64,000 nucleotides of DNA from a virus, in the IMG/VR virus record IMGVR_UViG_3300044641_010328, positions 1 to 64,000 of that record, one strand, 5' to 3'. Positions 39,583-58,451 of the stretch are shown here, one piece after another. The translations under genes were made by a program, and so were the position numbers. The notes under the pieces were generated by a model. The model was not told the DNA's origin, made no database searches, and saw only the letters and a program-made list of their open reading frames with translations. The first letter of the stretch is position 1. Every line of letters starts with the position of its first letter.

Positions 39583-40139
39583 CAGAAATCCTGTACTCGA
39601 TTGTGGTGATTCCAGCACCTTGGTGCGTATAGCTCAGATCCTCCCACAGCTATCTCCTCTAGGTTTTCAACCTTTCGATCTGTGAAATATGCATCTGCTC
39701 CGCATGTCGTACAAACTGCAGAGCACTTCTCAACGTGTGTTGCCCAGGGTAGTATCTCCTTGATCTCAGGAAATACATTGCACGAGGCAGACATCTCAAT
39801 AGAGGCAACCACGACTGTGAACCCTGTCCTGTACAGAGAGATGAGCGCATCAGCAACGCCATCAATCATGAATGCTTCATCAACTGCAATTACATCGGGT
39901 CGTGTCTCTTGTGCAGTCACAAATCTAAGAATATCCTCGCCATTTGATACATTTATTGCAGGAATCTTTCCGCCGTTGTGCGTGCAGATCTCGCTCTCTG
40001 TGTACCTGTCGTCAAGACGGGGCTTGAATGCGAGAATCTTTAAACCCTTGTACCTAAATCTATCGACAAGCGCGATGAGTCGCGTTGTCTTTGAACCCAT
40101 CATTGGGCCTGTAAAGACATGAAAACTTGGGTTGATCAT
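39582..40139 (-). CDS. tdk: Thymidine kinase
   Basis: GPMMGSKTT, VDEAF, CTTCG, VGGSELY.PRC. Confidence 0.92.
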   Translation of the reverse strand: MINPSFHVFTGPMMGSKTTRLIALVDRFRYKGLKILAFKPRLDDRYTESEICTHNGGKIPAINVSNGEDILRFVTAQETRPDVIAVDEAFMIDGVADALISLYRTGFTVVVASIEMSASCNVFPEIKEILPWATHVEKCSAVCTTCGADAYFTDRKVENLEEIAVGGSELYAPRCWNHHNRVQDF

Positions 40140-41131
40140 TTGAGCTTCCACCATTGAAGAGTCCTCTCTAGTCCATCCCAAAATGTGACCTTAGGTACAT
40201 ATCCAAAGTCACGTTGAGCAGCTCCATAATCACCTAGCGTGTGCATAACGTCTCCTTGTCGCCAGGGAGCATTAACAACCTCAATATTCTTGAACTCACT
40301 CATAAGATGCTCAAGAATCTCCTTGTTTGATGTGCGCTGGCCACAGCAAACATTATACCTCTCACCCGTAAACTTTTTAAGTGAAAACGCTGCAAGCACG
40401 TTTGCATCGACGACGTTGTCAACGTAACAAAGATCTCTAGACTGTGTCCCGTCTCCGTCAGACCTCAAGGGCGTTCCAGCCGATATTGCATTGCACCATG
40501 CTGAAACCGCTGTCGAATAGGGTGAATCACCCATCTGTCCCGGTCCAAATACGTTAAAATACCGCAGAAGGACAACATCGAGATCGTATAGCCTGCTGAA
40601 TAGTGCTGAAAAGTCCTCTAGGCATGACTTCTGTAGTGCATAAGGAGACTTTGGACTCTTTGGTTCAGATTCAGACGTTGGCATGACGTCAGCGCCTCCG
40701 TACACTGAGGAGGAGGATGCAGCAACGACTCTTCGTACGTTTCCGACGCACGCCTTGATTAAGATGACATACTTCATAAGATTTTCATCAGTTGTCTCAA
40801 CTGGGTGCTCAACAGAGTAAGACACGCGTGGGACGGCTGCCTGGTGAAAAACGACGTCATATTTCTTCTGATGGATCCTATCAAGCACAACAGGCGACGC
40901 AAAGTCATCCTCTATCACCCAGACCTGACTCGGATTTCTGCTATCAATCTGTGACTCGTAGATTGACACAAGATTTCCAATGAATGTCTTGACATCAAGT
41001 CCAGAAAAATTATCCAGACTTCCATTCACCATATTGTCAACCACGTCTACTGTGTGCCCATCAGCAACTAGACGCTTTACGAGGTTTGAGCCAATGAATC
41101 CGGCTCCTCCCGTCACTAGAACATTTGCCAT
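40136..41131 (-). CDS. NAD-dependent nucleotide-sugar epimerase/dehydratase (extended SDR)
   Basis: TGGAGFIGS, SSSSVYG, YALQK, LRYFNVFGP. Confidence 0.93.
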   Translation of the reverse strand: MANVLVTGGAGFIGSNLVKRLVADGHTVDVVDNMVNGSLDNFSGLDVKTFIGNLVSIYESQIDSRNPSQVWVIEDDFASPVVLDRIHQKKYDVVFHQAAVPRVSYSVEHPVETTDENLMKYVILIKACVGNVRRVVAASSSSVYGGADVMPTSESEPKSPKSPYALQKSCLEDFSALFSRLYDLDVVLLRYFNVFGPGQMGDSPYSTAVSAWCNAISAGTPLRSDGDGTQSRDLCYVDNVVDANVLAAFSLKKFTGERYNVCCGQRTSNKEILEHLMSEFKNIEVVNAPWRQGDVMHTLGDYGAAQRDFGYVPKVTFWDGLERTLQWWKLK

Positions 41132-41164
41132 GATTTAGATTCTCCTGTGCTCCATTCTATCATG

Positions 41165-42037
41165 CTAAGGAACAATGTGTGCACAATTTAGGCACACTTT
41201 GACTCGAATATCTCTAGATTCAAGACCAATCAAATTCTGAGCCTTGAAACCAATGTGAATCAGCGCATCAAGATCTATCTTCAGATTTTTTGGCACGTTG
41301 GTTGATCTGCACACAATGTCAAGGACATCATGCTCTGGTCTATGCATAAATCGAACGTATGATATGCAGCTTGAATTTGCTGTTACAAACCTACGGGATC
41401 CTGCTCCCTGACCCGACTCCATCTCTTTTATGATTCTGTCCATAAGATCATCATTTATCTGCCCGTAATATTCCTCTTCACCTGGCACTGAGAGTGCACC
41501 TGGTCCGAGGTTGTCAGACTGAGATGCAATCACCTCAAACTTCAAATCAAGAGATTCATTTCTCCCTGTGGCAGACAGCGCACTCTCAACATAGTTTGTC
41601 ATCTTTTCTGTGCTTACAAACTCTCTGCTATGAACAATGTCGCGAACCGCCTCGGGATCTGGAATTCCCTTGCATGTAATCACAGAAGGATGGTCTCTCA
41701 GCGCCAGTGATTGTGTGTTGAATGCCTCCCACGTGGTCCGTAGTGAACCAAGGTCGTGCATCTCATCGCCTCTGGCAGCAAACCGCGCTGTAACTGTGCT
41801 CCATTCGGGTGCAAGAAAGACGACAACATTATTCAAATCATCGAGAAACCTGTGAAGCTCGCCGGACTCGTGGCTGTTATCACGGCCAAAGATCTTTGGA
41901 TACACAGCACGACTGATGTGACCCCGATCTCGAATATCATACCTGAAGTTTGTAGACCTGTGAAGTTGTCCGTAGAAAGTTGACTTGCCCGAGAGATCAC
42001 AGCCCTCAAGAACAATCTGCCTTGTTGGTAGCCTCAT
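41165..42037 (-). CDS. dNMP kinase fused to a thymidylate-synthase-like domain
   Basis: N-terminal LEGCDLSGKST...DRGHIS..VY; C-terminal SRR...SCIS..F...CRSTNVPKNLKIDL...CAH. Confidence 0.75.
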   Translation of the reverse strand: MRLPTRQIVLEGCDLSGKSTFYGQLHRSTNFRYDIRDRGHISRAVYPKIFGRDNSHESGELHRFLDDLNNVVVFLAPEWSTVTARFAARGDEMHDLGSLRTTWEAFNTQSLALRDHPSVITCKGIPDPEAVRDIVHSREFVSTEKMTNYVESALSATGRNESLDLKFEVIASQSDNLGPGALSVPGEEEYYGQINDDLMDRIIKEMESGQGAGSRRFVTANSSCISYVRFMHRPEHDVLDIVCRSTNVPKNLKIDLDALIHIGFKAQNLIGLESRDIRVKVCLNCAHIVP

Positions 42038-45000
42038 ACCTGAATCTTCCTCATCTTGTTATTGTTCGTGGAGAATCCCCAGTTCGGATCCTTGCTGACC
42101 TCTGCGATGTAGATCTCGTAGTGGTTAAGTGGCATCTCGCCCCAGATCCGGAGATTGACCGTCTGCATCTCATTATCGCACACCTGTGCCCGAATGAAAC
42201 CTTTACCATTCTTGGTCTTCTTTACATTGAAGTCCTTCACCAGGAACCAGCAGATCCCCTTCTCATTGTCGCCAACCTCAGTGATCGGACCAACCTGTGC
42301 CTTCTTGATCTTGGCGATGATGTCCTCGGGGAACATCAGGTCCTCACGAGAGGTCGAGGTGAGATCGAAGTACATCTTCAGCTTCTCAGATCGAGTCCAA
42401 TCCGGAAGATTCTCGTAGTTCTCAAACAGCTTCCAGAAGGTGACCTCAGGCTGCCGACCTTCCTTGATCAGCTTCTTCATCTCGGTCTTGGTGTATCCGA
42501 ACCGACCGCGCCTGAGGATGTCGTAGTTCTTTTCCTCAGTCAGGGTCGCCAAGAGCTGGCGGTGATTTGTCACCTTGCCGGACTTGAAGTCCTCCAGCGA
42601 TCGAAGCGCCTCGACGCTGCAGAGCGAGGTGAGTGTGGTCTTGTTCACCTTTGAGTGCCTCCAGGCGCCGTCCTCAGTGTACAGCATGGACTCGATCGAG
42701 ATGTAGGGGCGGTTGTCCATGATCTCGGCAACAGCCGTTTCGCCTACTCCCTTGATGGAGGACAGCGGCGGAACGAAGCCCTGCAGTTCGTGGCTGTACA
42801 TCCAGACAAGACCCGAGCTATTGATGTCTGGTGGGTGGATCTTGAATCCCTGCTCCTTGATCTCAGTTGCAACCTTCGCAAGGCCTTCGGGATTAGAGTT
42901 CTCGGACTGGAGGCAGGTGGCAAGCCATTCCTCCTCGTAGTGCTTGTGAAGCCAGGCAGCGTAGTAGGAATCGACAGCATACGATACGGAGTGAGACTTG
43001 TTGAAGCCATATGCAGAGAATGCCTCGATCGTCTCGTAGAGCTCTGTCGCATCCTTGACTGACATGCCGTTCAGGTTCACCGCACCATCAACAAACCGCT
43101 TGCGAAGGTCCTCGCGCTCCTTGGCCTTCTTCTCATTCATGTCCAGAGACTTCTTGACCAGAGTCTTACGCATCTGATCAGATTCACCGGGATTGAAGCC
43201 AGCAAGCTTCTGTGCCAGGAGCATGAACTGCTCCTGGTAGACGACGAATCCGTGTGTCGGCCCGAGGACGTCCTTCAGGATTGGATGCTTATAGGTTGCA
43301 AGCCCCTTGTTCTTGACCTCGACATACTTCTTGTGGACACCGGCAGCGAGTGGACCAGGACGATAGATCGCGGTGATGGCGGACAGGTCCTCGATCGAGG
43401 TGGGCTTCGCCTCGAGGCAGAACTTTCGAGCACCGCTGTTTGTGAACTGGAAGACCTGTGTGAATCGCCCCTCGTGATAGACGTGCTTCCAGACGTCCTG
43501 GTCATCCATCTCGTTGTATCGAATGTTTAGATTCTTGTCGAAGAAGTCCTTGACCTGTGCGAAAGTCGGATCCTTGATGCCATGCCGTGTCTGGAGGACC
43601 ATTCGAATGCAGTCCTCAACCATCTTCAGAAGAGAGAGACCGAGGAAGTCGAACTTGAGGAAGCCGTTCTCCTCGAGATGCCGGAAGTTCATACCTTCAG
43701 ACCAGGGTGTCTGGATCTCACCGCGGACTGAGATGACCGGCATGTGATCCTCAAGCTTTGGGCAGATGAGGACGCCGCCTGCATGCCGGCCAATCGATCG
43801 TGTTTCCATGAAGAGAGACTGGACCTGCTCACAGAGCTCCGGATACTTCTCCATGAAGATCTTGTACTTTTCAGAGTACTTCATGCAGTCAGCGTGAGAC
43901 AGGACGTAGGTGCTCTTTTCCTCGTGGTCACCTAGTGCCCTGTGCATGACATCGTCCTGCAGCGGACCAGTGACCTCGTTCACCTCCTCGAACGGAATAC
44001 CATGGAACTTTGCGATGTCCTTAATCAGGGACTTCAGCTTCAAGGTATTGAAGTTCGAGACCGGAACAACAGAGGCCTCTCCGAATAGCTTGCGTGCCTC
44101 ATCGATTAGAACATCACGATCACCGACGTCAGTGTCGATGTCAGGCCACGCGACCTTGTGGCGACCGAGGAACCGCTCCCACAGGAGGTCGTACTTGATC
44201 GGATCAACCGATGTGATGCCGAGGACGTAGTTGACCAGAGATCCTGCACCCGATCCGCGACCAGGACCGATCAGCGTTCGATGCTGTGCACGGTCGAAGA
44301 CGAAATAGAGAGTGAGGAAGTAGTTCTCGAACTTGAGATACTTGATGTCATCAAGCTCCATCTTCAGTCGTTCGACGTATTCAGGTTTCGTGTGAAGACC
44401 GAGCTCAACAAGACCCTTCTTGCACATGTCAAGGAGCTGGTTGAAGGCAGTCTGCTCGGGCTTGTTAAAGCTCGGAAGCTTTGCAGAGGAATCGAAGGAG
44501 ATCTCCTCACACTTTTCCCAGGCGATGTCATGAGTCCGCTCGATCGACTCCTTGACCAGAAGCTCAGTCCCCTTGTAGAAGTCGTGCTGGTCCTTGTGAG
44601 CAAGGTACTCATCCCACATCTGCTGTGCGTTCTTAGGATACAGCTCGCACTTGAGCTCCTCGAAGGCAGGCAGCGTCTGCTTCTGCATGTCATCAGAGCG
44701 GCCGCCCATACGGCCAAGCTTCTTGTAGAGCTCACGCGCCTGCCAGACGTTCGGGCTGTAGTAGTGAGAATCTGCGGTCGCGATCGTCTTGATGCCGGTG
44801 CGCTTCGACAGGTCAATCAGGTGCTTGTTGGTCGTGTGCTGGATGTCAAGCTTGTTGAACTGGAGCTCGAGGAAGAAGTTGTCGATTCCAACCGCATCGA
44901 CAAATCGATCCGTGTGATTTTGGAGCTCACGCTGGATCTGCTCATGAGGCTTCTTCAGCGCCTCACCGCGAATCGAGGTCGAAGCAAGAAGGCCTCCGAC

Positions 45001-45591
45001 ACATGCAGTCGAGACCACAAGCCCTTCACCATGCTGCTTGAGCATGTTGTAATCGATGCGAGGAAACTTGTAGTAGCCCTCGACGTAGGACCGCTTGACA
45101 AGGTTGAACAGGTTCTTGAGCCCAGTTCGATTCTTGGCAAAGACGACCAGATGATACCGGCGCTTCCATTCATCTGCATCATCAGAGTCAACAGACTTGG
45201 TCTCCTCCTCGTCCTCGACAACAAGGCCTCCGGTCACCTCCTCCTCAGCGAGGATGTCAATCTTCTCAGGCTTGCCTTCCTCGTTCTTTGCGCGTTTTGC
45301 CTCGAAGTGAGCAGCGCGCTTCTTTTCCCAATCAAGAAGAGATGGGACAAAGTAGAACTCGACGCCATAAAGCTGCCGGTACTTACGTCCCTTACCCTTC
45401 ATTTTCCTAGAATAGGTGTGAGCGTGAGCGAGGCCGTTGCCGCTACCGTGGTCAGTCAGCGCCCATGCGTCCATGCCATTATGGAGGACCCAGTCGATGT
45501 GCTTATCAGGATAGCCAAGTCCGTCATTGACGCTGAAACCTGAGTGCGCATGCAAACCGACAAAACGATTCGGTGGTTCGATGATGCTCAT
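42034..45591 (-). CDS. dnaE: DNA polymerase III alpha subunit (DnaE)
   Basis: PHP motifs HAHS, TDHG, DSHY; GPGRGSGAGS, PDIDTD, HAGGV, KFDFLGL, YGFNKSH. Confidence 0.97.
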   Translation of the reverse strand: MSIIEPPNRFVGLHAHSGFSVNDGLGYPDKHIDWVLHNGMDAWALTDHGSGNGLAHAHTYSRKMKGKGRKYRQLYGVEFYFVPSLLDWEKKRAAHFEAKRAKNEEGKPEKIDILAEEEVTGGLVVEDEEETKSVDSDDADEWKRRYHLVVFAKNRTGLKNLFNLVKRSYVEGYYKFPRIDYNMLKQHGEGLVVSTACVGGLLASTSIRGEALKKPHEQIQRELQNHTDRFVDAVGIDNFFLELQFNKLDIQHTTNKHLIDLSKRTGIKTIATADSHYYSPNVWQARELYKKLGRMGGRSDDMQKQTLPAFEELKCELYPKNAQQMWDEYLAHKDQHDFYKGTELLVKESIERTHDIAWEKCEEISFDSSAKLPSFNKPEQTAFNQLLDMCKKGLVELGLHTKPEYVERLKMELDDIKYLKFENYFLTLYFVFDRAQHRTLIGPGRGSGAGSLVNYVLGITSVDPIKYDLLWERFLGRHKVAWPDIDTDVGDRDVLIDEARKLFGEASVVPVSNFNTLKLKSLIKDIAKFHGIPFEEVNEVTGPLQDDVMHRALGDHEEKSTYVLSHADCMKYSEKYKIFMEKYPELCEQVQSLFMETRSIGRHAGGVLICPKLEDHMPVISVRGEIQTPWSEGMNFRHLEENGFLKFDFLGLSLLKMVEDCIRMVLQTRHGIKDPTFAQVKDFFDKNLNIRYNEMDDQDVWKHVYHEGRFTQVFQFTNSGARKFCLEAKPTSIEDLSAITAIYRPGPLAAGVHKKYVEVKNKGLATYKHPILKDVLGPTHGFVVYQEQFMLLAQKLAGFNPGESDQMRKTLVKKSLDMNEKKAKEREDLRKRFVDGAVNLNGMSVKDATELYETIEAFSAYGFNKSHSVSYAVDSYYAAWLHKHYEEEWLATCLQSENSNPEGLAKVATEIKEQGFKIHPPDINSSGLVWMYSHELQGFVPPLSSIKGVGETAVAEIMDNRPYISIESMLYTEDGAWRHSKVNKTTLTSLCSVEALRSLEDFKSGKVTNHRQLLATLTEEKNYDILRRGRFGYTKTEMKKLIKEGRQPEVTFWKLFENYENLPDWTRSEKLKMYFDLTSTSREDLMFPEDIIAKIKKAQVGPITEVGDNEKGICWFLVKDFNVKKTKNGKGFIRAQVCDNEMQTVNLRIWGEMPLNHYEIYIAEVSKDPNWGFSTNNNKMRKIQV

Positions 45592-45638
45592 TTGTTTTCT
45601 CTCGATTTATTGTATGTGTGCAGTAGCGAGAATACAAG

Positions 45639-46139
45639 CTAGTTGTCGAAAGCTATGACCATTCGGATCTTGTCAGATAGATCCTGGTCTCCGACAATTT
45701 CTGCAAGGGTGCCTGTCCAGGCCATCTCCTTGCAATTATTGTCGGGACCCGGCAGAAGGATCCGAGACACTTCCATCTGTGGAACAGGAATCGTCTCGTG
45801 GTAGTTATCAGCAGCCCAGAGATCATCTGGATTTGTCTCCTCGCCATCTTCTTTTCTGTAGGAAAGAAAGAGATCACGATTTGCCTGCCTAACTTCTGAA
45901 GGTGTTAGCCAGGTGTGGCTGTGAAGATCGCGGCCCCAGACATCAACGAGCTGCCTCCAGGCATTTGAGCAATCAGCCGGCACACCTCGTTCTGCAGTTT
46001 CTAGATTTCCAGCTGGATGCCTGACACCTGCAATGATTCCGAACCAGCTATAGCTTCTTGAGTCATTGATGTGCTCAAAGGCAATCCAGGGTCCGTCTGA
46101 TGTCTTGAATTCCCAGAATCCGTGAATATCGCAACCCAC
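45639..46139 (-). CDS. Conserved-type phage hypothetical protein (MGCDIH...FDN)
   Basis: Pattern MGCDIH, R.Y..F...AGVR, HSH.WLT, R.V..FDN; promoter at 46160-46188. Confidence 0.75.
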   Translation of the reverse strand: MGCDIHGFWEFKTSDGPWIAFEHINDSRSYSWFGIIAGVRHPAGNLETAERGVPADCSNAWRQLVDVWGRDLHSHTWLTPSEVRQANRDLFLSYRKEDGEETNPDDLWAADNYHETIPVPQMEVSRILLPGPDNNCKEMAWTGTLAEIVGDQDLSDKIRMVIAFDN

Positions 46140-46240
46140 AGTGCATCTCCTATGACTCTATTATAACACAAGCTCGGCCCGTCGCACGAGACCATGCGCG
46201 GGCCGATTGTTTTGTCGCCGACCGGCGATTAGTGACTGCC

Positions 46241-46822
46241 TCAGCCCTCGTTCTTTCTAGTGGGCTTTCCCTTCACTGCCATGAGTGCGGCATTGACAAC
46301 TGCATCAGGGTTGTCTGACCACTTTGCCATCTTCTTGAGCTCCTCGTAGGATGCTCCCTTTTCAATTGCCCTTGCCATTGCTGTAGCTGCCTTGTATGTC
46401 TCACCGTGATACTTTCCCTTCACAACTCGGCCGTTCTTCTTCTTTCCCTCAAGCATTGGCATGTCCATATATCCTGTCATTGATGACATTGCTGGCGGCA
46501 TTTGTGGCGAGTTAAACTTGTGATACTCATACTTGAGATAATCATGCACAGTTCCCATCATTGAGTCAATGACAGCAATCTTCTCCTGCACCCACTCAGG
46601 AAGATCATCGTAATCGTTGATCATGTCATGAAGCTCGTGCGCTTTCTGTCCAGTTGTGAACAGATTTGACTTGATCATGCCGGTCTCTTCTCCCGGAGCA
46701 TTATCATGAAAAACTCTGCCCTGTGTGGTTCCCATGTGATCTTGGGGCATCTGATCCATGCCCATCTCATGCATCTCTCTGAGAACCATCTTTCTGATCT
46801 TTAGTCTATCAATCGGTGACAT
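46241..46822 (-). CDS. Hypothetical late protein (LPEWVQ.KI family)
   Basis: DDLPEWVQEKIA...V.DYL.YE. Confidence 0.7.
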   Translation of the reverse strand: MSPIDRLKIRKMVLREMHEMGMDQMPQDHMGTTQGRVFHDNAPGEETGMIKSNLFTTGQKAHELHDMINDYDDLPEWVQEKIAVIDSMMGTVHDYLKYEYHKFNSPQMPPAMSSMTGYMDMPMLEGKKKNGRVVKGKYHGETYKAATAMARAIEKGASYEELKKMAKWSDNPDAVVNAALMAVKGKPTRKNEG

Positions 46823-46864: not shown

Positions 46865-46871
46865 TTCTTAC

Positions 46872-47306
46872 TTATTCGATGTGTCCGTAGTAGGGCTCGA
46901 AGAGGGGCTTCCCTTCTGCAATGGATCGCTGGAGATAGTCGCGCAGATCCTCATAGGAGGTTGTAACCTTAACGCCAGATTGAGCTAGCATCAAATTGAA
47001 GTTGCCTGTGAGACCCTGCGCAAAGTAGACAATTGGAACGCCAGCGTTGTATGCCACACCTGCCTCAAAAATTGTGCCCATGTCCTTATCGCGCGTGTTG
47101 CAGAGAACAAAGTCAGCTGTTCGAATGTGATCAACATTTCCTTTGAATGTGTCCTTCTGAACCTGGAGAGAAGCTGTTGGGGGACAGATAAAGATCTTGC
47201 GCGGCGATGCAACATCAAGACCAAGATCTCCTAGCAAATTTTCCAGAGCCTCGACTTCCTCGAGCGCCTTAGGTGTGAACCAGCCAGATGCGAGATATAC
47301 CTTCAT
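46872..47306 (-). CDS. Nucleoside 2-deoxyribosyltransferase / nucleotide N-glycosidase family
   Basis: VYLASGWF, D.GT.FEAG.A, FNLML. Confidence 0.85.
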   Translation of the reverse strand: MKVYLASGWFTPKALEEVEALENLLGDLGLDVASPRKIFICPPTASLQVQKDTFKGNVDHIRTADFVLCNTRDKDMGTIFEAGVAYNAGVPIVYFAQGLTGNFNLMLAQSGVKVTTSYEDLRDYLQRSIAEGKPLFEPYYGHIE

Positions 47307-47347
47307 TTTGAACCTCACATAAACAATAGTGGCGCACATCGTTGTTT

Positions 47348-50221: not shown

Positions 50222-50246
50222 AGTGCAGGCTAAGCCGTGAGGCTAA

Positions 50247-51896
50247 TTAGCGGATGACTGCAGCAATGACGTCGCCAGCCTTGACTGGGAAGGCAAAGTC
50301 GAGGCGATCGCTTGCAACGACAACCGAGTAGTCGGAATCCTGCACCATGAGCATGCCGTTGACGTAGACGTCGAGACGGCCGGCAGCGGCAGCAGAATCG
50401 GCAAGACCATCGAAGCGACCAGCGGCGAGGCTGACCTGGAATGGGTATGCGCCACCGGAGGAGGCGACATCGCTTGCAACGTTCTTGACTTCCTTGCCCT
50501 TGCCGCCGCCTGAGCCGGCTGCGAGGGTGTTGAGGGCTCCGACGATCGTCTCGGTGCTGCTGAAGGCGGCGATGAACGCAGCGCGATCACCGGCCTCAGC
50601 AACAGCGTACTGGCCGTCTGCACCGGAGAGCACGAGCTCGCCAGTGGTCATCAGCTTCAGATTGGCGCCGTCTGCGAGCAGGTCGTGGGCGATTCCAATG
50701 TTGAGGGCTGAGAACTCAGGTGCAGATGCAGTGTAGATCGCCTGTGGCAGTGCCCACACCGCGCCGCCGGCTGCATCAGCAGTGACGGAGAGGTGAGTGC
50801 CGCTGACGAAGTCGATCAGACCAGCAGAGACCATGGCCTTGCCACCGTCCGACCGCATGAGGCGGTTGGCGGTGAGGTTGCTGCCCGTTACGAGTGCAAA
50901 GGTGACGCTGTCAGTTGTTGCAACAGGCTGTCCGATTGCCACAGTGATGACTGCACCAGCTTCAGAGATCGTGACACCGGTTCCGGCTGCAAGGCGGCCT
51001 TCGATGGCATCGGCGAGATCCTGGTTAGCAACCTCAATGAGGTTACCGGAAGCATCAGCCCACACGAGTGCGGAGGTGAGATCGCCGGCCTGCAGGGTGT
51101 CAGCCATGAACTTGTCAGAGGCAACCCACTTGGTGTCTGCGTGGTTCCAAGAAAGGCTCTCGCCTGCCTCGGATCCAAGGAAGATACCAGCGCCGTCGAG
51201 TGATGCACCAGTTCCGCCCTCGGCGATAACAATGTTCTTGTCATCGACGGTGAGCGTGGTGGAGTTGACGGTTGTTGTGGTTCCGTTGACTGTGAGGTCA
51301 CCAGCAATGACCACGTCCTTGCTGAACAGCGAACCAGAGACTGTGAGCGTGCCGGCGGCGAAGGTCATTCTGCCGTCGTCGATCAGGTTCTTGTTCGCGT
51401 CAACAAACGTTACGCGGGTTGCGGTGAGGTTGGTGCCCTTGAACTTGGGAGCAACGAGTGCAGAGTCGATGCCGTCGTACTTGAGTCCCACATTGTCGAC
51501 GAGCTTCTTGTCTGGTCCGTGGAAGACGAGGGCGCCATCTGTGGTGCTGAGGTTGAGGGCCTTGACAGTTCCGGCACGGGCTTCGCCAGTTACGACAACG
51601 TCGTATCCGAACGTTCCTGAGCCGACGACTGCGAGGTCCTTCTTGACACCAAGAGAAGCGGCACCAGAGGCGTCAAGGTGATCGGCGAGGTCGACGATCT
51701 GAACCTTGGCGTATTCTCCGGCAATTTCTTCCTTGTAGTCAGCGGCACCGATGATGTCCTTGACCTGGCCACGAAGGGCCTCGAGGTCAATGGCGAGTGA
51801 ACCAAGTCCATCCTCGGACTTGATCTGCTCGGCACGCATCTTGGTGATTGAGCCCGAGGGCTGCAAGCTAAGGGCTGCGTAATCTTTATTTGCCAT
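50247..51896 (-). CDS. Virion structural/fiber protein
   Basis: GDLTVNGTTTTVNSTTLTVDDKNI motif; Ala/Gly/Thr-rich; LDVYVNG..DY C-terminal domain; strong codon bias. Confidence 0.8.
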   Translation of the reverse strand: MANKDYAALSLQPSGSITKMRAEQIKSEDGLGSLAIDLEALRGQVKDIIGAADYKEEIAGEYAKVQIVDLADHLDASGAASLGVKKDLAVVGSGTFGYDVVVTGEARAGTVKALNLSTTDGALVFHGPDKKLVDNVGLKYDGIDSALVAPKFKGTNLTATRVTFVDANKNLIDDGRMTFAAGTLTVSGSLFSKDVVIAGDLTVNGTTTTVNSTTLTVDDKNIVIAEGGTGASLDGAGIFLGSEAGESLSWNHADTKWVASDKFMADTLQAGDLTSALVWADASGNLIEVANQDLADAIEGRLAAGTGVTISEAGAVITVAIGQPVATTDSVTFALVTGSNLTANRLMRSDGGKAMVSAGLIDFVSGTHLSVTADAAGGAVWALPQAIYTASAPEFSALNIGIAHDLLADGANLKLMTTGELVLSGADGQYAVAEAGDRAAFIAAFSSTETIVGALNTLAAGSGGGKGKEVKNVASDVASSGGAYPFQVSLAAGRFDGLADSAAAAGRLDVYVNGMLMVQDSDYSVVVASDRLDFAFPVKAGDVIAAVIR

Positions 51897-51978
51897 TTTA
51901 GTTTCTCCAGTTGAGATTTTTGCTCAATGAGGAGACATTCCTCATCTGAGTCCAAACTCTAACATAACTGGAACTAAA
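51897..51978 (-). promoter_or_regulatory. Structured 5' leader occluding the RBS
   Basis: TTTAGTT-CCAGTT pairs with AACTGG-AGA-AACTAAA; inner hairpin ATGAGGA/TCCTCAT. Confidence 0.55.
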
Positions 51979-52058
51979 CTTGGCTTTTTGAGAGGGCCCA
52001 AATCTCTTATATTCTATGTATGCTTATCAAGAAAATTTATTCATAAATTCTAAAAAAA

Positions 52059-52277
52059 TTATCGTGAGTAAATCATCTTCTTTAGAGACTTCAAGTGAGC
52101 ATCAAATGTGCAAAAATCTCCGTTAAAAAAATCCAGGACGTGAGAAGCACACTCACTCTTTGAATCATCAAACTTAAAGATGAATTTTCCGCTAGACTCA
52201 GAATTTGCACTAATGAGCTTTACACCCTTCATTTTCAGGTAAGCAGCTACGGGCAGCTCTGATGTTGTGTAAATCAT
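52059..52277 (-). CDS. DUF5659-like small protein
   Basis: YTTSEL..AAYL...G..L......F.F. Confidence 0.65.
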   Translation of the reverse strand: MIYTTSELPVAAYLKMKGVKLISANSESSGKFIFKFDDSKSECASHVLDFFNGDFCTFDAHLKSLKKMIYSR

Positions 52278-52322
52278 TTTTGATTATCTCTTTTTCTTAA
52301 ATAGGCACGAGGAACATCAGAT

Positions 52323-53414
52323 CTACTCTGTATAGGAGTAAGTCGCTAAAAAAATATCATCATTTTCTATAGCACCACTAGGTAGCTGTATTTGCCTATT
52401 TAAAATTGCATAATCAGTATTTTGTGTTAAAAGCTGACCATTTCTAAAAATCATCAAAGATTGAACAGGGTCTGGATCTTTTTCAATTTGGAGCGCAAGA
52501 GATCCTGAGACTGTTATAAAAGATGCAATCTCATTGAATGAGAACTTTTTGACTGAAACTGATCGTGTGTACATCGTGATGATGACATCACTTGGATCGA
52601 GATCAATTTGTCCGAATAGAATATTTCTTCCTGAGACTATGTAGTCCTTTAGTGCACCTTGTGTTAGCAGCTGTCCGTTTAACCAGAGCATTACACTTGC
52701 AGAATTTGCAGGATCGAATGCCAGAGTGAATGTCTTATTCAATCCATCCATGGCGCCAGATGGAATCTCATTTAAGACTAGCTCTGTAAGTAGTCCGGAA
52801 GAGCCATTTTTTCCAAAAGAAGAAGGATCTGCGGTTGACGATATTGTTATTTGACCGCTGGATCCGGTTGATAGCGATATTCCCGATCCTGCAATAAGGT
52901 AGGGAGATCCATCAGATAGAGCTGTAAGCGATCCGCTTAATCCTTCCAGCGCAATAACAGAGCCTGTAACTACTAGGCTGTTTCCAACCTCAACAGGAGA
53001 CCCTCCAAAAATTCTTCCTTCAACATAAACATCGCCCCCAAAAAATACGGATGATGTAGATGAAAGACTTTCAACTGTGAGAATGGTACCAGAAGTGGAA
53101 ACAGTAATACTGCCATCGGCTCCTGATGTGATCTCGATTCCATTCCCAGATCGTATAAACGGTGAGCCATCAGACAGTGCCTGGATTGAGCCCATCGCTC
53201 CAGACAAGAATGTCACGGGACCAGTAAATACCGATCCCGTGACAGAAGCAACTACGCTAAAATCATTCTTTACTACAAGCAGTTCACCAATCTGTTGGCG
53301 AACAATTCCGCCTTGCGTGTCGAGCTGCAGTTCATTCTTGAATGCACCACCAGTTCCCGAATAGACGAGAACTGGTGCAAGAAGGTGTTCATCTACAACT
53401 CTAACAGCGGGCAT
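52323..53414 (-). CDS. Virion structural protein (fiber-like repeats)
   Basis: Two LSDGSP..G.GI repeats; two NGQLLTQ..DY domains. Confidence 0.75.
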   Translation of the reverse strand: MPAVRVVDEHLLAPVLVYSGTGGAFKNELQLDTQGGIVRQQIGELLVVKNDFSVVASVTGSVFTGPVTFLSGAMGSIQALSDGSPFIRSGNGIEITSGADGSITVSTSGTILTVESLSSTSSVFFGGDVYVEGRIFGGSPVEVGNSLVVTGSVIALEGLSGSLTALSDGSPYLIAGSGISLSTGSSGQITISSTADPSSFGKNGSSGLLTELVLNEIPSGAMDGLNKTFTLAFDPANSASVMLWLNGQLLTQGALKDYIVSGRNILFGQIDLDPSDVIITMYTRSVSVKKFSFNEIASFITVSGSLALQIEKDPDPVQSLMIFRNGQLLTQNTDYAILNRQIQLPSGAIENDDIFLATYSYTE

Positions 53415-53454
53415 CTTTCATTCCAGATAGAATAATAAAGCGCCCGCAGAATTC

Positions 53455-54405
53455 TTAAAAATCTCTACGAGCCTTGTAATTACTCACAATCTCGTCAATC
53501 TCTCCTAGAATCTCATTCCAGAGCGTCCGGAAGTGTGGGACACCGCCATCTGTTCCGTTCATGTCATCTCGTGTGGCCTGGTAGATCGTGTCATTCGGGT
53601 GGTAGGTGAGGTGCTTCTCGCTGTCCTCGTCAGGCCAGTAGAGGTTGGTACCTGTTCCATTGCGGAATGTCTTGATGTAGTGCCATGCAGGCTCGCGAAG
53701 ATTGATCGCAACATGAGCCTCGGGGAAGACGCGGAGGATCTCACGTGCCATGAGTGCCGCAAGCATGTTATCCTCCTCAGGCTGGATCTGCTTGTCCTGA
53801 CGCTGCTTAATGAACATGAAAGCATCGCGGATGTTCATGCGCATGTAGTAGAACGTCTCGAGGCACTTCGGGAGGATATGACGAGCGTCCATGAGAGAGA
53901 TCTTCTTGGAGTCGACCATGTCAACATAGAGCGCCTTTGCATCCTCTACGTGATTCTTCCAGCGCTCATAGAACTCAGGGCTATTCTGGATCGAGCCTGG
54001 AACTAGGCTGCGCTCGTGAGAGAGCCAGCGATCACCTGTGCACTGCGCCGCAAAAGATCCGGCACGATGACGAATGAGATGAGTTACTGTCTGAGTATCG
54101 ATTCCACCCACAAGGAAGGTGAGACCGATTAGCTCCATTGCTGCAGGAAGGGCACGACCCGCAAAGACGTCCTCCATGGTCTTTGAGAGATCTGCTTCAG
54201 AAGCCTCAGCATAGGGAACATGCTTATCAGCCCACGTGGACTTAACGAAACAATAAACTGCCTGTCGGATCGTCTTTGGATCAGGGCTGTCGACAAGCTC
54301 GAGCTTAAGCGCATCGAGGCTATTTACGAACTTGGTTGTAGGCCGCTCGTCGAAACGAATTGCCATGGGAAGGTTAATGGGCTGTAGATCTAGATTTTGT
54401 GGCAT
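53455..54405 (-). CDS. Divergent ThyX (flavin-dependent thymidylate synthase) paralog
   Basis: THLIRHRAGSFAAQCTGDR (SxRY altered), DARHILP, MN.R....F...R. Confidence 0.8.
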   Translation of the reverse strand: MPQNLDLQPINLPMAIRFDERPTTKFVNSLDALKLELVDSPDPKTIRQAVYCFVKSTWADKHVPYAEASEADLSKTMEDVFAGRALPAAMELIGLTFLVGGIDTQTVTHLIRHRAGSFAAQCTGDRWLSHERSLVPGSIQNSPEFYERWKNHVEDAKALYVDMVDSKKISLMDARHILPKCLETFYYMRMNIRDAFMFIKQRQDKQIQPEEDNMLAALMAREILRVFPEAHVAINLREPAWHYIKTFRNGTGTNLYWPDEDSEKHLTYHPNDTIYQATRDDMNGTDGGVPHFRTLWNEILGEIDEIVSNYKARRDF

Positions 54406-54414
54406 TAATTTCTC

Positions 54415-55332
54415 CTATCGAAGATTATCGATGATTTTGGTCAAGTTTTCAACTAGAATCACGCCTTCTTGCCGCTGGAGTGATTTATTGTAAGGCTGAA
54501 TTGGGCTAAATGTCCGAAGTCCATGAGAGGCAAACTCTGCTGCATGCTTTGGCGAGTCATCTACACAGAAGGCAACGTGTCCTGCAAACTTTGACTGGAT
54601 GATCCAGAGGAACTTCTCTCCGCTGAAGGCTACATCATCAAAGTAGAGACCCGAGCTGTGAAGCCATCGTGCTGTGTCAAAGAGGCAGAGAGGATTGTCT
54701 GCAGGGCGTGCTGTCAGGATCTGGACCCAATACCCAAGTCGCTGTAGCTCATGCGTGAATTCGGCTGCATCACTGACAGCCGGAATGTCGCGAAGCTTGC
54801 GCTCTGCTATGAACTCCTTGAAGAGGCGCTCTGTGTTATGCCCTAGATCTTGAGCAGCTGATGCAGCATAGTACTCTGGACAGTCATACGAAATCACTGC
54901 TCCCTTCGTCTCAGCAAGCCACTCAAAGAACGAGCGTCTGAACTCTGCAAGCACATCATCCATGTCAAGGATTGCTACTGGACGACCATCCCAAGACTTC
55001 TTAGACAGGTTATGCCTGAAGTGAAGGTAAGCATCCTTGTCCTCGAAGGCATCAACAAGCTCTTTCTCATTGATGTCCCAGACATTCATGATTGCCATCA
55101 GATATCTGATCACATCAATGCTCTCATACAAGATCTTTGTCCGGTCTGGCATCTTGCGATCCATTCGGTGATCTTTGAAATTGATTGATGATACAAGATC
55201 TGAGATCTCAGAATGCAATTCAAGAGCAAATGATTTTGTCATCTGCTCTTTCTCTACGTCTGTGAATGTCTTGCTATCGAAGAAAAGATTAGAGAATGCA
55301 CGCTGACGATGCAGCATCTCTTTTAGGGTCAC
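54415..55332 (-). CDS. All-alpha dNTPase domain fused to HAD 5'-nucleotidase
   Basis: LHSEISDL...FKDH...YESIDVIRY; DMDDVL, LTARP, VDDSP. Confidence 0.8.
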   Translation of the reverse strand: MTLKEMLHRQRAFSNLFFDSKTFTDVEKEQMTKSFALELHSEISDLVSSINFKDHRMDRKMPDRTKILYESIDVIRYLMAIMNVWDINEKELVDAFEDKDAYLHFRHNLSKKSWDGRPVAILDMDDVLAEFRRSFFEWLAETKGAVISYDCPEYYAASAAQDLGHNTERLFKEFIAERKLRDIPAVSDAAEFTHELQRLGYWVQILTARPADNPLCLFDTARWLHSSGLYFDDVAFSGEKFLWIIQSKFAGHVAFCVDDSPKHAAEFASHGLRTFSPIQPYNKSLQRQEGVILVENLTKIIDNLR

Positions 55333-55341
55333 GTTAGTCCT

Positions 55342-55713
55342 CTAGTATTTACTCTTAATCCTATCGTGAATGATCCTATCTTTATTAACGTACGCCTCAA
55401 AAAGCTCATCAGGCGTAACTCCCATAATAATCAGAAGAGAGAGGAAGTAGTTAAAAGAGTCAACCATCTCCTCCTTGAATGCGGCTCGATCAAAATCGCG
55501 AATCTCTGTCTGTCGATGAGACTTTGCGTTCTTTAGCTCTTGCACTGCCTCAAAGACCTCTTCGACACCACGAAGTGCAAGATCTCTGAGATGTTGCTGT
55601 GTAGCCTTGTTTGTCAGATCGACAGGCATCTCTGGATAGACATCTGGGACCTGCTTCTGCAAGGCTGTCATGAAGTCCTTGCGAAGTTCAAACATTTGAT
55701 CGAGCTTGTCCAA
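55342..55713 (-). CDS. Dimeric dUTPase/dCTPase-like protein
   Basis: VEEVFEA....KN.K.H...KEEMVD...Y...Y..K..I...R. Confidence 0.8.
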   Translation of the reverse strand: MDKLDQMFELRKDFMTALQKQVPDVYPEMPVDLTNKATQQHLRDLALRGVEEVFEAVQELKNAKSHRQTEIRDFDRAAFKEEMVDSFNYFLSLLIIMGVTPDELFEAYVNKDRIIHDRIKSKY

Positions 55714-55714
55714 T

Positions 55715-55954
55715 TTAGTCCTCTAGAGACTCAGGTGGAGACATTGCGGCAATTGCAGCAATCATTCGGTTAAGGCTCTCATCAAATTTGCTGAGATAGG
55801 CGGGATCAGGAGAAAGCTGCTCTCGCTCATCGACAACCAGGCGAATCGTCCTGAGGTTGTCAACGATGTCAGTGCCTGATAGAATCGCGATCTGAAGAAG
55901 TCGTGCAATCTGTGAGATTGTGTCATCTGATAGTCCATAAGTCGTTGTTGCCAT
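55715..55954 (-). CDS. Hypothetical protein
   Basis: 79 aa ORF with AAGGA RBS. Confidence 0.7.
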   Translation of the reverse strand: MATTTYGLSDDTISQIARLLQIAILSGTDIVDNLRTIRLVVDEREQLSPDPAYLSKFDESLNRMIAAIAAMSPPESLED

Positions 55955-55963
55955 TTGTTTTCC

Positions 55964-56767
55964 TTATTTCTGAATTTCTGGGATCCAAAAGGTAGTCCGT
56001 CCGTCCTTCGTCGTCTCTCTCTTTACCTCTCTACCTTCTGGATCCTTGGGCTGATTGTAGACTGCAAAGCGGCGACTGTAATCTCCCTTTTGTCCATCAA
56101 AACCTGAAAATGTGTAGATGGTGGCGCCACCAGTCTCATATGACTTCCTAATAACATTCTTAATCACAGAATTGAGTGTTTTCAACTCATCTTCAGATAA
56201 GGTGTTAGTTTCTCTATGGGGACTGAGTCTGCTAAAATACAAGCATTCAGACTTTAGATAGTTTCCTACTCCGCTAATTACAGACTGATCCATAAGAACT
56301 TCTGCTAGCGTTCTATTCTTCTTCTTAATAGATCTAATAAAGACAGCGTCTGATACATCTTCAGCAAGCATATCTGGACCTAAAGTCTTCAGCTTCGCTG
56401 CCAGCGAATCTTTTTTGTCAATTAGTTTTAATGTGCCGAAGTTTCTCATATCATTGAAGTAGATCTCTCCTCCGTCGTCCAAATCAAACTGAATCCTGCT
56501 GTGCTTTCTCTCAACAGCTGACCAGCTTCCAGTCATTCCTAAAGTGTTGAAAATATGCATCCCATTGTCAAGACTGATGTAGATGAATTTTCCCTTACAG
56601 CCAACTTCAGAAACTTTGACATTCAGAAAATGATTCAGACTTTCCCATCCTTCAGGATTCTTCTTTGTGTAGCGTCCTGATAGAATTCTCATATCAGAAA
56701 TCTTCTTGTTCAAGATTCTTTCACGAATCCCGTCAGATACAACTTTTACCTCTGGGCCCTCTGGCAC
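55964..56767 (-). CDS. mutM: Fpg/Nei DNA glycosylase (zincless finger)
   Basis: PEGPEV, KGKF, LGMTG, D.RNFG, LMDQ..ISGVGNY, GRTT.W without Cys. Confidence 0.92.
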   Translation of the reverse strand: MPEGPEVKVVSDGIRERILNKKISDMRILSGRYTKKNPEGWESLNHFLNVKVSEVGCKGKFIYISLDNGMHIFNTLGMTGSWSAVERKHSRIQFDLDDGGEIYFNDMRNFGTLKLIDKKDSLAAKLKTLGPDMLAEDVSDAVFIRSIKKKNRTLAEVLMDQSVISGVGNYLKSECLYFSRLSPHRETNTLSEDELKTLNSVIKNVIRKSYETGGATIYTFSGFDGQKGDYSRRFAVYNQPKDPEGREVKRETTKDGRTTFWIPEIQK

Positions 56768-56781
56768 GTAACCTCCTAATT

Positions 56782-57204
56782 TTATTGACTATTTACCCAT
56801 CGCCAGTAATTCTTCAGCGCACCGTCCTTGGGCTCTGGAATCTTTGACCACGCATGATTACAGAAGATCTTGTATGCTGCAGCAGCGTAATCTCCGATCC
56901 CATACAGATCTTTCGGATCTCTCTTATCCCACGTCAGATAGTCCTGTGACATCTTGACAAGAGTCTTGCTTCTCCGATCTCCGAGACCAAGATCCTTGAT
57001 TAGATCTCTGACTTCTTCAGTGCTTGCATTCGCAGCGTCCTTTGCAGTTGGCCACCGATCAAAGAACTGCCACATAAGTGGTTCAGCTTCGACACGCTTT
57101 GTCAGATTGCAGAAAATACAAACAACAAAAACACGCCAAGGATCATCCTGGACGTGTTCTTGAATGAGGTTGTAGGGTGAACGCGGTGCGTGCATACCAT
57201 ACAA
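56782..57204 (-). CDS. MBD4-like HhH mismatch (T:G/U:G) DNA glycosylase
   Basis: PRSPYNLIQE....DPW......N.T, LGL...R...L.KMS.DY, LYGIGDY....Y.IFC, P.D..L..Y..W. Confidence 0.85.
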   Translation of the reverse strand: MYGMHAPRSPYNLIQEHVQDDPWRVFVVCIFCNLTKRVEAEPLMWQFFDRWPTAKDAANASTEEVRDLIKDLGLGDRRSKTLVKMSQDYLTWDKRDPKDLYGIGDYAAAAYKIFCNHAWSKIPEPKDGALKNYWRWVNSQ

Positions 57205-57255
57205 TAAAGCAAAAATAAACGTTTTACAAGTCGAGACTCGCTAGACGCTCTTAGA

Positions 57256-57513
57256 TCACTTCTTTAAAAGTGTTCCTGCCCATTTTGGTGCTTGTCCAAC
57301 GTAAACCTTGAGAGCGTACTTATGAGCTTGACGTCTACCTTGATCTTTCTCTTTCATCGCATGATGCACAACAGAGCTGTAGATTGACTTGAATCGACGA
57401 TGCTCTTTGTCAATATCATCTTCATTTCTGTCTGATTTTTCAAGCAGAACTCTAAAGAATCTTATCACTCTGCTTGTGATCTTATCAGGCTTTGGCGCGT
57501 ACTTCGATGGCAT
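57256..57513 (-). CDS. Basic hypothetical protein
   Basis: 85 aa; ATAGTTA upstream. Confidence 0.6.
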   Translation of the reverse strand: MPSKYAPKPDKITSRVIRFFRVLLEKSDRNEDDIDKEHRRFKSIYSSVVHHAMKEKDQGRRQAHKYALKVYVGQAPKWAGTLLKK

Positions 57514-57522
57514 AAATCCTAA

Positions 57523-57777
57523 CTATCGATGCCTGCCGCAGTGAATGTGTCCATCTCTGTGTCGGTGGCAATCTCTAGCTGGAGCAGGCGGAGATACGTG
57601 ACGAATTTGTGCTGGAGCCCATCGTCCTGGAACCCAGTATCCCCATCGATCATAGTGACCTGGCACCCAGCGCGAGGCTGGAGCTGTGTACACGACAACC
57701 TGAGCGTAATGTGCCGGTGGATGCTCAACAGGGTGAGCGTGTGCCATGCAAGCAAAGAGAAGTCCAACTAAAAACAT
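57523..57777 (-). CDS. Secreted His/Pro-rich WxxGxW-repeat protein
   Basis: Signal peptide ending AHA; WVPGHY...YWVPGRW; AGGAGG RBS. Confidence 0.7.
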   Translation of the reverse strand: MFLVGLLFACMAHAHPVEHPPAHYAQVVVYTAPASRWVPGHYDRWGYWVPGRWAPAQIRHVSPPAPARDCHRHRDGHIHCGRHR

Positions 57778-57818
57778 TTTGCCTCCTAATATTAATACCG
57801 GCTAAGCCAGCAAAATAT

Positions 57819-58451
57819 TCAATAGCCAAATGCTTCAATTGTGTCTCGGAATGGGTTTCCTGGAATTTCTTTGACCTGACTTAGCATGTCCTCTGCAAGC
57901 CAGCAAATCTCTCTCTGTGCATCTGGCTTCAATCGAAGCCCAAGAAAATGCGAGAATGATCGCCAGTTGAACATAACGTCCATTGTGATCTGATTTCCAT
58001 ATGGAAGGTAGAAACGTGCAGATTCCTTTGCTCGCTTCCTGCTCATTCCGCCATCAACAAGGCGCCTGAGTGTGTCATGATATCGCATGATTGCGTCTTC
58101 CATGAAGGCAATGTACCGAGACTGCTCTTCCAGGGGCCAATCTTTGGGAAGATAGTACTTGTCATCCTTCAGCTCCTTGTACCTCGCTGACTCAGCATTG
58201 ATTGAGACGCCAATTCTATGCTTTAGTAGCTGAATGTGCGTTGCACAGTCGACAGTTGCGAGAAAGTGCAAAGAGCTTTTCTCAAATGGCGTCTCGTGAC
58301 CATTTTCAGCCAGCATCCTTAGAAGCGCCGGAATTCTTTCATGCTTTTCAGGTGTAAGATCTCGGCTTGTGCTTGTCCACGCTGATAGCGCATGAACATC
58401 ATCGCCGCCGTACCACCCGACTAGCTCAACCTTGTTTTCTTGAAATGACAC
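57819..58451 (-). CDS. thyX: Flavin-dependent thymidylate synthase (canonical)
   Basis: GHETPFE, QLLKHRIGVSINAESARY, ESAR..LP, NWRSF.HFL.LR...AQ.EI. Confidence 0.92.
   Translation of the reverse strand: MSFQENKVELVGWYGGDDVHALSAWTSTSRDLTPEKHERIPALLRMLAENGHETPFEKSSLHFLATVDCATHIQLLKHRIGVSINAESARYKELKDDKYYLPKDWPLEEQSRYIAFMEDAIMRYHDTLRRLVDGGMSRKRAKESARFYLPYGNQITMDVMFNWRSFSHFLGLRLKPDAQREICWLAEDMLSQVKEIPGNPFRDTIEAFGY

Follow-up and report, generated by a model that had tools for sequence, protein, structure and literature searches.

A candidate T4-style cytosine-replacement pathway with a kinase-fused, minimised thymidylate synthase-like domain and a conserved ThyX paralog in a large uncultured DnaE-type phage

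Introduction

The closest described counterparts of the locus presented here are two phage systems for modified cytosine: the 5-hydroxymethylcytosine (hmC) system of T4, comprising gp56, gp42, gp1, cd, td and the alpha/beta glucosyltransferases, and the glycosylated 5-hydroxycytosine (5hoC) pathway. The locus lies in bases 1-64000 of the single 90,978-base IMG/VR virus record IMGVR_UViG_3300044641_010328 (G000), a stretch of 64,000 nucleotides referred to throughout as the window. Its central element is a gene for a deoxynucleoside monophosphate (dNMP) kinase fused to a small thymidylate synthase (TS)-like domain, and it also carries a second, divergent ThyX gene.

RB69 gp48 and DLP3 gp80 are TS homologs that make 5-hydroxy-dCMP with O2 and flavin, and they act together with a dNMP kinase (PMC13326640, NAR 2026). 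In these enzymes, Asp at the N177 position confers a preference for dCMP, while Asn at the D169 position marked every homolog that produced 5-hydroxydeoxycytidine (5hodC), including nine metaviromic and other picks; neither fusions nor ThyX are mentioned (PMC13326640). RB69 and RL38JI carry a TMK-like kinase gene in the cluster of the synthase, whereas in the window phage kinase and synthase-like domain form one polypeptide.

The fusion protein shares the TS fold, the catalytic Cys, Asn169 and Asp177 with the 5-hydroxy-dCMP synthases (RB69 gp48, DLP3 gp80, HY126 AfhB and RL38JI gp216; PMC13326640, PDB 9iqc/9iqu), but its domain is joined to a kinase and spans about 150 residues. The 5hoC pathway and the window also have in common a TMK-like partner kinase, a gp56-type dCTPase and nearby genes for nucleoside diphosphate (NDP) sugars; in the window, however, the sugar gene encodes a UDP-hexose(NAc) 4-epimerase instead of an arabinose set, and no DNA glycosyltransferase was found in the fragment. 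Unlike the 5hoC phages, the window phage is DnaE-type, has an implied genome size of at least about 300 kb, and falls outside the Straboviridae and Pootjesviridae. The T4 system has the same logic, a homologous dCTPase, a TS-fold dCMP enzyme and a dCMP deaminase. It differs in that the window protein has Asn instead of Asp at position 169, the kinase is fused and belongs to the YorR/TMK type, dTMP comes from ThyX instead of ThyA, and T4-type glucosyltransferases are absent.

With moderate confidence, the region is read here as encoding a pathway of the T4 kind, by which a large uncultured DnaE-type phage would substitute a modified base for the cytosine of its DNA; the chemistry is most likely that of the 5hoC route, in a fused and minimised form. 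A first-pass annotation had proposed an undescribed cytosine-modification pathway between 40136 and 58451. All genes that it listed are present on the minus strand, at or near where it placed them, with the dCMP deaminase just outside the start of that interval. Its T4-type scheme also holds, with a dCTPase homolog, a dCMP-directed domain of TS fold whose specificity site is Asp, a dNMP kinase and a separate dTMP supply. The pathway is probably not undescribed: the Cys/Asn169/Asp177 signature is that of 5-hydroxy-dCMP synthases (PMC13326640), the fold matches AfhB, and the base was described in 2025-26. The chemistry is thus probably that of the known 5hoC route, and what is new is its fused, minimised form and an unexplained unit around the ThyX paralog.

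Co-occurrence in relatives, which the first-pass annotation had made its own test, was found. The whole gene set is conserved in order in G001 (IMGVR_UViG_3300046820_003928), a 140-kb IMG/VR contig that is 39% complete and syntenic with the window from 26.9 kb to the end of the record. Five large relatives of 200-236 kb each carry exactly one homolog of the fusion protein, and the neighbours of the ThyX paralog recur across 80 viral loci, as detailed below.

The kinase/TS-like fusion protein

41165..42037, minus strand: kinase/TS-like fusion; residues 1 to ~140 are a YorR/dTMP-kinase-like dNMP kinase and residues ~140-290 a minimal TS-fold domain; candidate 5-hydroxy-dCMP synthase and kinase

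The fusion protein has no match in Pfam or NCBIfam scans, and its 35 homologs in metagenomes are all unnamed. An AlphaFold2 (AF2) model built from 22 of these 35 homologs has a pLDDT of 90 and contains both folds. Residues 4-146 match YorR, a kinase-like protein of SPbeta (VIA Z 12.8), as well as dTMP and deoxynucleoside kinases. Residues 140-290 adopt a TS fold whose VIA matches are the CMP hydroxymethylase MilA (Z 11.7, 145 aligned residues, rmsd 3.1), the dCMP hydroxylase AfhB of phage HY126 (9iqc/9iqu; Z 11.1-11.2) and thymidylate synthases (Z 10.5-10.9). Against PDB sequences, phmmer returned nothing meaningful and a profile search returned YorR and kinases only, while tblastn against phage sequences matched the kinase half alone. 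The ThyA-type Pfam model has no match in G000, G001 or Geobacillus phage GR1; the mini TS-like domain is therefore invisible to the standard model.

The TS-like domain contains the motifs SRR, Cys224, R244-S-T-N247 and Asp255 and ends in AHIVP. Cys224 aligns with C163 of RB69 gp48, the catalytic Cys (C146 in E. coli). Asp255 follows Arg244 by 11 residues, the spacing between R166 and N177 of E. coli TS, and the distances from Cys to Arg (20) and from Arg to Asp (11) are identical in RB69 gp48 (C163/R183/D194). A profile of 40 family C-domains compared by hhalign with five phage TS homologs gave Prob 92.7 and E 4e-7, and in this alignment the TS motifs coincide with SRR, Cys224, R244-S-x-N247, Asp255 and the A-H at the C-terminus. 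The match was strengthened by distant homologs and more TS homologs, since a narrower 22-sequence alignment against RB69 gp48 alone had given E 0.21. The catalytic Cys and the Asp at the N177 position are invariant across 41 fusion homologs.

Asn247 occupies the D169 position in the window protein and in 21 of 21 other members of its alignment (A1), 20 of them at 53-84% identity and one, P0039, at 31%. The window protein reads CRSTN...D across this motif. RB69, Maestro and the Pootjesviridae phage Atu_ph04, all of the 5hoC type, read MRSQN...D, and the hmC-type Citrobacter phage Moon and Lactobacillus phage ATCCB, whose TS homologs adjoin hmC glucosyltransferase genes, read MRSND...D. Judged by these motifs, the D169N rule holds in this small sample of five phage TS homologs. 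Motifs and model together make a flavin-binding dCMP hydroxylase the most likely candidate function of the TS-like domain.

A further 19 full-length fusion homologs, at 27-33% identity and in a matching gene context, came from related viral contigs. Their Cys and Asp177 never vary, and the D169 position is Asn in five, Asp in 12 and Glu in two. Either these relatives differ in their product, or the D169N rule fails to carry over to them. Orthologs that share a context and yet alternate between Asn and Asp/Glu amount to a natural experiment on hydroxyl versus hydroxymethyl chemistry.

This variation bears on the alternative that the TS-like domain makes another C5-substituted dCMP, hydroxymethylated or methylated via folate as by T4 gp42 or in XP12, which would leave hmC or 5-methylcytosine (5mC) derivatives in the DNA. 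The 12 distant orthologs with Asp at 169 resemble hmC-type enzymes, and dCMP hydroxymethylases have the same Cys and the same Asp at N177. The best structural match is itself a CMP hydroxymethylase, with AfhB within one Z unit, and the MBD4-type glycosylase described below fits the repair of deaminated 5mC or 5-hydroxymethylcytosine. A folate-derived product is nevertheless improbable. Some 100 residues of the N-terminal half of TS are missing from the domain, as is the C-terminal tail, and in ThyA these parts close over the folate. The window protein, the 20 homologs at 53-84% identity and P0039 also have Asn169, and Asn went with hydroxylation in the published test set (PMC13326640).

Loci L023-L093, which encode these distant kinase::TS-like fusions, suggest that related phages may make different C5 substituents.

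The predicted pathway

The other genes assigned to the pathway are the following.

38253..38741, minus strand: dCMP deaminase (PF00383, 4.4e-19; ortholog in G001 77% identical), predicted to give dUMP for dTMP as T4 cd does
39582..40181, minus strand: thymidine kinase (TK; PF00265, 1.5e-35)
40136..41131, minus strand: NAD-dependent UDP-hexose(NAc) 4-epimerase-like short-chain dehydrogenase/reductase (SDR; PF01370, 5e-47), directly downstream of the fusion gene
42034..45591, minus strand: DnaE-type replicative polymerase (tblastn matches to DnaE-like phage polymerases; 91% identical in G001)
55342..55713, minus strand: T4/RB69 gp56-type dCTPase/dUTPase homolog, MazG-like, 123 residues (PHROG 12184, 4e-19)
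57819..58451, minus strand: canonical ThyX (Pfam Thy1, 3e-34; NCBIfam thyX, TIGR02170, 99.1 bits against a cut-off of 87.9), with GHETPFE and ESARY kept

The proposed pathway would begin with the gp56-like MazG protein, which would hydrolyse dCTP and dUTP to their monophosphates. Cys224 of the mini TS-fold domain would then attack C6 of dCMP and install a C5 substituent, most likely a hydroxyl from O2 via reduced flavin. The product would be 5-hydroxy-dCMP, as favoured by the D169-equivalent Asn and by the structural resemblance to AfhB. The flavin-dependent chemistry, for which a ThyX-type mechanism had earlier been suggested as possible, would sit in this TS-like domain and not necessarily in the ThyX paralog. 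The fused N-terminal kinase would convert the product to the diphosphate, and a host NDP kinase and the phage DnaE, which would have to accept the modified dNTP, would place it in DNA. The epimerase may supply a sugar donor for glycosylation of the 5-hydroxyl on DNA by transferases encoded outside the fragment. Meanwhile, dTTP would come from the dCMP deaminase, canonical ThyX and TK. What the sequences show directly are folds, motifs, homologies, gene order and co-occurrence; all enzymatic activities, the product and its glycosylation are predictions from these.

The first step is predicted from a comparison in which a 63-sequence family of the 123-residue MazG protein aligned with RB69 gp56 (hhalign Prob 93.8, E 1.6e-7) over 121 columns, to a common C-terminal GY. 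By sequence, the protein is a gp56-type dCTPase/dUTPase homolog over the whole all-alpha NTP pyrophosphatase domain, with its substrate predicted. A gp56-type dCTPase is a hallmark of phages that exclude cytosine from their DNA.

These genes could also serve no base substitution at all and be ordinary nucleotide-pool and repair genes of a very large phage, with the TS-like domain as a dCMP-binding or regulatory appendage of the kinase. Many large phages have numerous nucleotide-metabolism genes. A ribonucleotide reductase is present here alongside TK, dCMP deaminase and ThyX, no DNA glycosyltransferase was identified in the record, and every functional claim rests on homology. This explanation is doubtful, because the Cys, SRR, R-S and dCMP-type Asp are invariant down to 27% identity, which argues for catalysis on a cytosine nucleotide. 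The gp56-type dCTPase and the duplicated, divergent ThyX genes conserved across the clade also speak against it.

Other base replacements were considered. DNA containing dU was ruled out by the presence of canonical ThyX and TK. For 2-aminoadenine and 7-deazaguanine, no PurZ or TGT-like match appeared among the open reading frames (ORFs) scanned, which were not every ORF, and no dedicated search was made.

If the fusion protein makes 5-hydroxy-dCDP, the range of glycosylated 5hoC DNA would widen beyond T4-like and Rhizobium phages and take in a broad clade of uncultured phages that are large and DnaE-type. The domain would be the smallest TS-fold hydroxylase known. With the kinase in the same polypeptide, it would offer enzymology and the production of modified DNA a compact module for two consecutive steps.

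Sugar genes and glycosyltransferases

The epimerase has its best PDB matches among WbgU/WbpP-type enzymes (1e-40 to 1e-45), and the NCBIfam TviC and GalE models match below their cut-offs. It had been described as lying beside dnaE; the epimerase is real, but the fusion gene lies between the two, adjoining the epimerase on one side and dnaE on the other. An SDR gene directly follows the fusion homolog in G001 and in the distant relatives L023, L028, L044, L052, L059 and L076 (27-33% protein identity). This conserved adjacency argues for a functional link to an NDP-sugar.

G001 also contains a sugar island at 113-125 kb (loci L012 and L013) with two GT4 and three GT2 glycosyltransferases, a PD-(D/E)XK nuclease, a DegT-family aminotransferase and a GDP-mannose 4,6-dehydratase (384 bits); the matching part of the genome lies outside record G000. 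Similar islands of sugar and glycosyltransferase genes occur in three of the five large relatives. The record itself gave no GT1 or GT2 match, and no island was detected in two of the five relatives; DNA glycosylation in this phage is therefore something that we infer, as opposed to a finding.

Several observations weigh against the cytosine-replacement reading or its 5hoC version. The TS-like domain has about 150 residues compared with 234-247 in the 5hoC-type homologs, so that the full TS core is absent; the stretch between SRR and Cys is 16 residues shorter than in RB69 gp48. The L143 position is Asn in the fusion protein, compared with Glu in RB69 and DLP3, and the distant fusions with Asp or Glu at 169 depart from the 5hoC signature. 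An Fpg/Nei-type glycosylase, one of which is encoded nearby, could in principle attack unprotected 5-hydroxycytosine. A GT1/GT2 search of the whole 91-kb record found no glycosyltransferase, extending the first-pass observation that the window has none. Two of the five large relatives (87% and 70% complete) likewise gave no GT1/GT2 match despite carrying the fusion, and the islands with multiple glycosyltransferases could serve capsid or host-surface glycans instead. The D169N rule was, in addition, derived from full-length proteins (PMC13326640), whereas the window domain is minimal.

A small sugar-nucleotide cluster lies at 12467-13813 on the minus strand of the window. It contains a NUDIX protein (12467-13027), a cupin resembling the C-terminus of mannose-6-phosphate isomerase (12990-13340) and, at 13337-13813, a cytidylyl/adenylyltransferase similar to RfaE domain II and to FAD synthetase. 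The cluster could feed an NDP-sugar, or FAD, to modification enzymes.

The ThyX paralog and its conserved unit

The second unit of the region centres on a ThyX paralog and includes the 123-residue MazG gene together with the following.

46872..47339, minus strand: nucleoside 2-deoxyribosyltransferase-like protein (PF05014, 4e-13; PDB 6evs, 2e-11, with the catalytic Glu aligned)
53455..54405, minus strand: ThyX paralog with a rewired substrate loop, 316 residues (Thy1, 1e-19; 46.8 bits, under the TIGR02170 thyX equivalog cut-off of 87.9)
54415..55332, minus strand: fusion of a MazG-like all-alpha NTP pyrophosphatase and an NT5C/HAD 5'(3')-deoxyribonucleotidase-like domain (MazG-HAD), 305 residues, with a DMDDV motif (PF06941, 1.6e-5; PF08761, 2.6e-3; PHROG 415/420/173)
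55715..55954, minus strand: 79-residue helical protein (u79), first gene of the packed unit (no Pfam match)

The AF2 model of the ThyX paralog has a pLDDT of 95 and matches the ThyX fold of Mycobacterium tuberculosis and Thermotoga maritima ThyX at Z 16-17. Its residues were read against Corynebacterium and M. tuberculosis ThyX and the canonical copy of the phage itself. The paralog retains R112-H-R114, the Arg of 'DAR..LP' and a later invariant Arg (substrate Arg R175 and R202). In place of SxRY it has C122-T-G124-D125, in which Ser is replaced by Cys122, Arg by Gly124 and Tyr by Asp125, and the His of GHxxxFE is Leu86. The altered active site noted in the first-pass annotation is thus confirmed, in a protein that falls under the equivalog cut-off. 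These changes are family-wide, but Cys122 is not universal in the wider family.

Compared with canonical ThyX (T. maritima, M. tuberculosis) and with the ThyX-like UMP/dUMP methylase PolB, the paralog has the same ThyX fold and RHR motif, and keeps the substrate Arg residues further along as well as the Q..E motif for flavin. It differs from both in having lost the GHxxxFE His and the SxRY Arg and Tyr, in having gained a Cys, and in its N- and C-terminal extensions.

A phmmer search of 1.84 billion representatives returned 465 relatives of the paralog, and 326 viral loci carry it in IMG/VR. Neighbours within 10 kb of the ThyX-like gene were counted in 80 of these 326 loci.

123-residue MazG: at least 77 of 80 loci
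Deoxyribosyltransferase: at least 74 of 80 loci
MazG-HAD: at least 73 of 80 loci
79-residue protein: at least 71 of 80 loci
DnaE: 58 of 80 loci
Fpg/Nei: 45 of 80 loci
MBD4-like: 38 of 80 loci

In the window, u79, MazG, MazG-HAD and the ThyX-like gene form a packed unit with gaps of at most 10 nt, and in many relatives the deoxyribosyltransferase gene directly follows the ThyX-like gene. The ThyX paralog, MazG-HAD, the 79-residue protein and the deoxyribosyltransferase are a second conserved unit. The N-domain of MazG-HAD is a paralog of the 123-residue MazG protein (hhalign E 4e-13), and PDB sequence searches with both MazG-like proteins gave no match. The deoxyribosyltransferase-like protein may catalyse base exchange or act as a dNMP N-glycosidase.

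The span 54415..55713 had been annotated as a pair of all-alpha dNTPase domains, one fused to a HAD nucleotidase. Both domains are indeed MazG-like and one is HAD-fused, but they belong to two genes split by one in-frame stop. The gp56-like MazG and MazG-HAD genes (55332-55342) share one frame and are parted by this single stop and 9 nt, as they are in G001. They may be separate genes, or the junction may allow occasional read-through.

It is possible, if tentative, that the paralog family performs flavin-dependent pyrimidine-nucleotide chemistry other than dTMP synthesis, either making a second non-canonical base or acting as a reduced-flavin partner of the mini TS-like hydroxylase. On this alternative, which is less favoured than the hydroxylase pathway yet less remote than a folate-derived product, the paralog and not, or not only, the TS-like domain would make the modified base, a new C5 derivative of a pyrimidine dNMP supplied by MazG. 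The site for folate/NADPH would have lost its His and the nucleotide loop would be remodelled, while HAD and the deoxyribosyltransferase would handle by-products or salvage. The packed unit, conserved in more than 70 of the 80 loci, favours it. Canonical ThyX and the paralog occur together in four of the five large relatives as well as in this phage, which indicates that the paralog is not simply the phage's dTMP synthase; ThyA occurs in none of the five. Between G000 and G001 the paralog shows 91% identity, the same figure as DnaE.

With RHR, R175 and R202 retained and a basic residue two positions past the lost Arg, the paralog may yet carry out ordinary dUMP methylation. The variability of Cys122 in the wider family adds to this side, and a literature search found no paper on the subfamily.

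The only cultured phage with a homolog of the paralog is Geobacillus phage GR1 (OK896991.1, locus L094, 79 kb), at 46% identity. A block at 23.9-34.8 kb of GR1 resembles the window in combining the paralog with a YorR-like kinase, a deoxyribosyltransferase, a DHH protein, DnaE and an all-alpha dUTPase. The kinase in GR1 has no TS domain attached, and the block further contains an NAD(P)H nitroreductase, an HD protein and a glycosyltransferase. GR1 has neither a TS-like domain nor a second ThyX. This grouping favours a modifying role for the paralog, but the paralog is also the sole ThyX/ThyA gene of GR1, which fits a plain thymidylate synthase there. A literature search likewise found no report on the DNA composition of GR1. 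As a cultured phage with the paralog but no TS-like domain, GR1 is a tractable system for the function of the paralog.

The conservation of the paralog, its coexistence with canonical ThyX and its context in GR1 fit a non-redundant function. If its chemistry is other than dTMP synthesis, the modification scheme of this widespread clade, made up of large aquatic phages, would involve two enzymes or two bases and be of a kind not yet described. ThyX enzymes are a well-studied family of drug targets, within which the paralog is a candidate for a new function that can be tested.

Repair glycosylases

55964..56767, minus strand: Fpg/Nei-family DNA glycosylase (PF01149, 1e-21; PF06831, 2e-21; PF21025, 6.5e-7), with an N-terminal P-E-G-P-E and no Cys4 zinc finger
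56782..57204, minus strand: stand-alone homolog of the MBD4 glycosylase domain, 140 residues (PDB MBD4 chains, 8e-33 over 133 residues)

The MBD4-like protein is of the HhH-GPD type, and its catalytic Asp127 (PKD, aligned with PED of MBD4) is invariant in 22 homologs. It consists of the glycosylase domain alone, with no N-terminal methyl-CpG-binding domain, and belongs to a large family of stand-alone proteins of about 140 residues in aquatic metagenomes. An alignment of 133 residues with the eukaryotic MBD4 glycosylase domain shows ~45% identity, and both proteins have the HhH motif and the catalytic Asp; unlike eukaryotic MBD4, the MBD4-like protein is stand-alone, 140 residues long and phage-encoded.

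Repair of deaminated 5mC or 5-hydroxymethylcytosine by MBD4 is established biology. The MBD4-like and Fpg/Nei-like neighbours may repair deaminated or oxidised bases, including the deaminated modified base. Of the earlier proposal of repair matched to the modification, the glycosylase gene, its catalytic Asp and its frequent presence near the ThyX-like gene (38 of 80 loci) stand; the link to repair of the modified base is one that we infer.

Genome context

IMG/VR classes the record as a 'provirus', and CheckV estimates its completeness at 27%, which for a 91-kb record implies that the phage genome measures about 300 kb or is larger still. Every gene of the region lies on the minus strand. An INPHARED megablast of the region gave no match and thus no close cultured phage, and by tblastn no phage polymerase in GenBank exceeds 31% identity to DnaE. 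A scan of GTDB genomes with the fusion protein for a host found no relative.

Two large ORFs without family matches (52323-53414 and 50247-51896) lie between the ThyX-like and deoxyribosyltransferase genes, and the pair is adjacent in many relatives. The 363-residue product of the first was considered as a hidden glycosyltransferase and dropped, the protein atlas giving weak tail-fibre or structural look-alikes only. The window also encodes host-like proteins that are unusual in phages (58656-59672, 59680-60282, 26923-28527 and 23603-25671): a type II glutamine synthetase, ClpP, a GroEL-type chaperonin, a sigma-70 factor and a GreA/GreB-like factor. The glutamine synthetase scores 454 bits, slightly below its equivalog cut-off.

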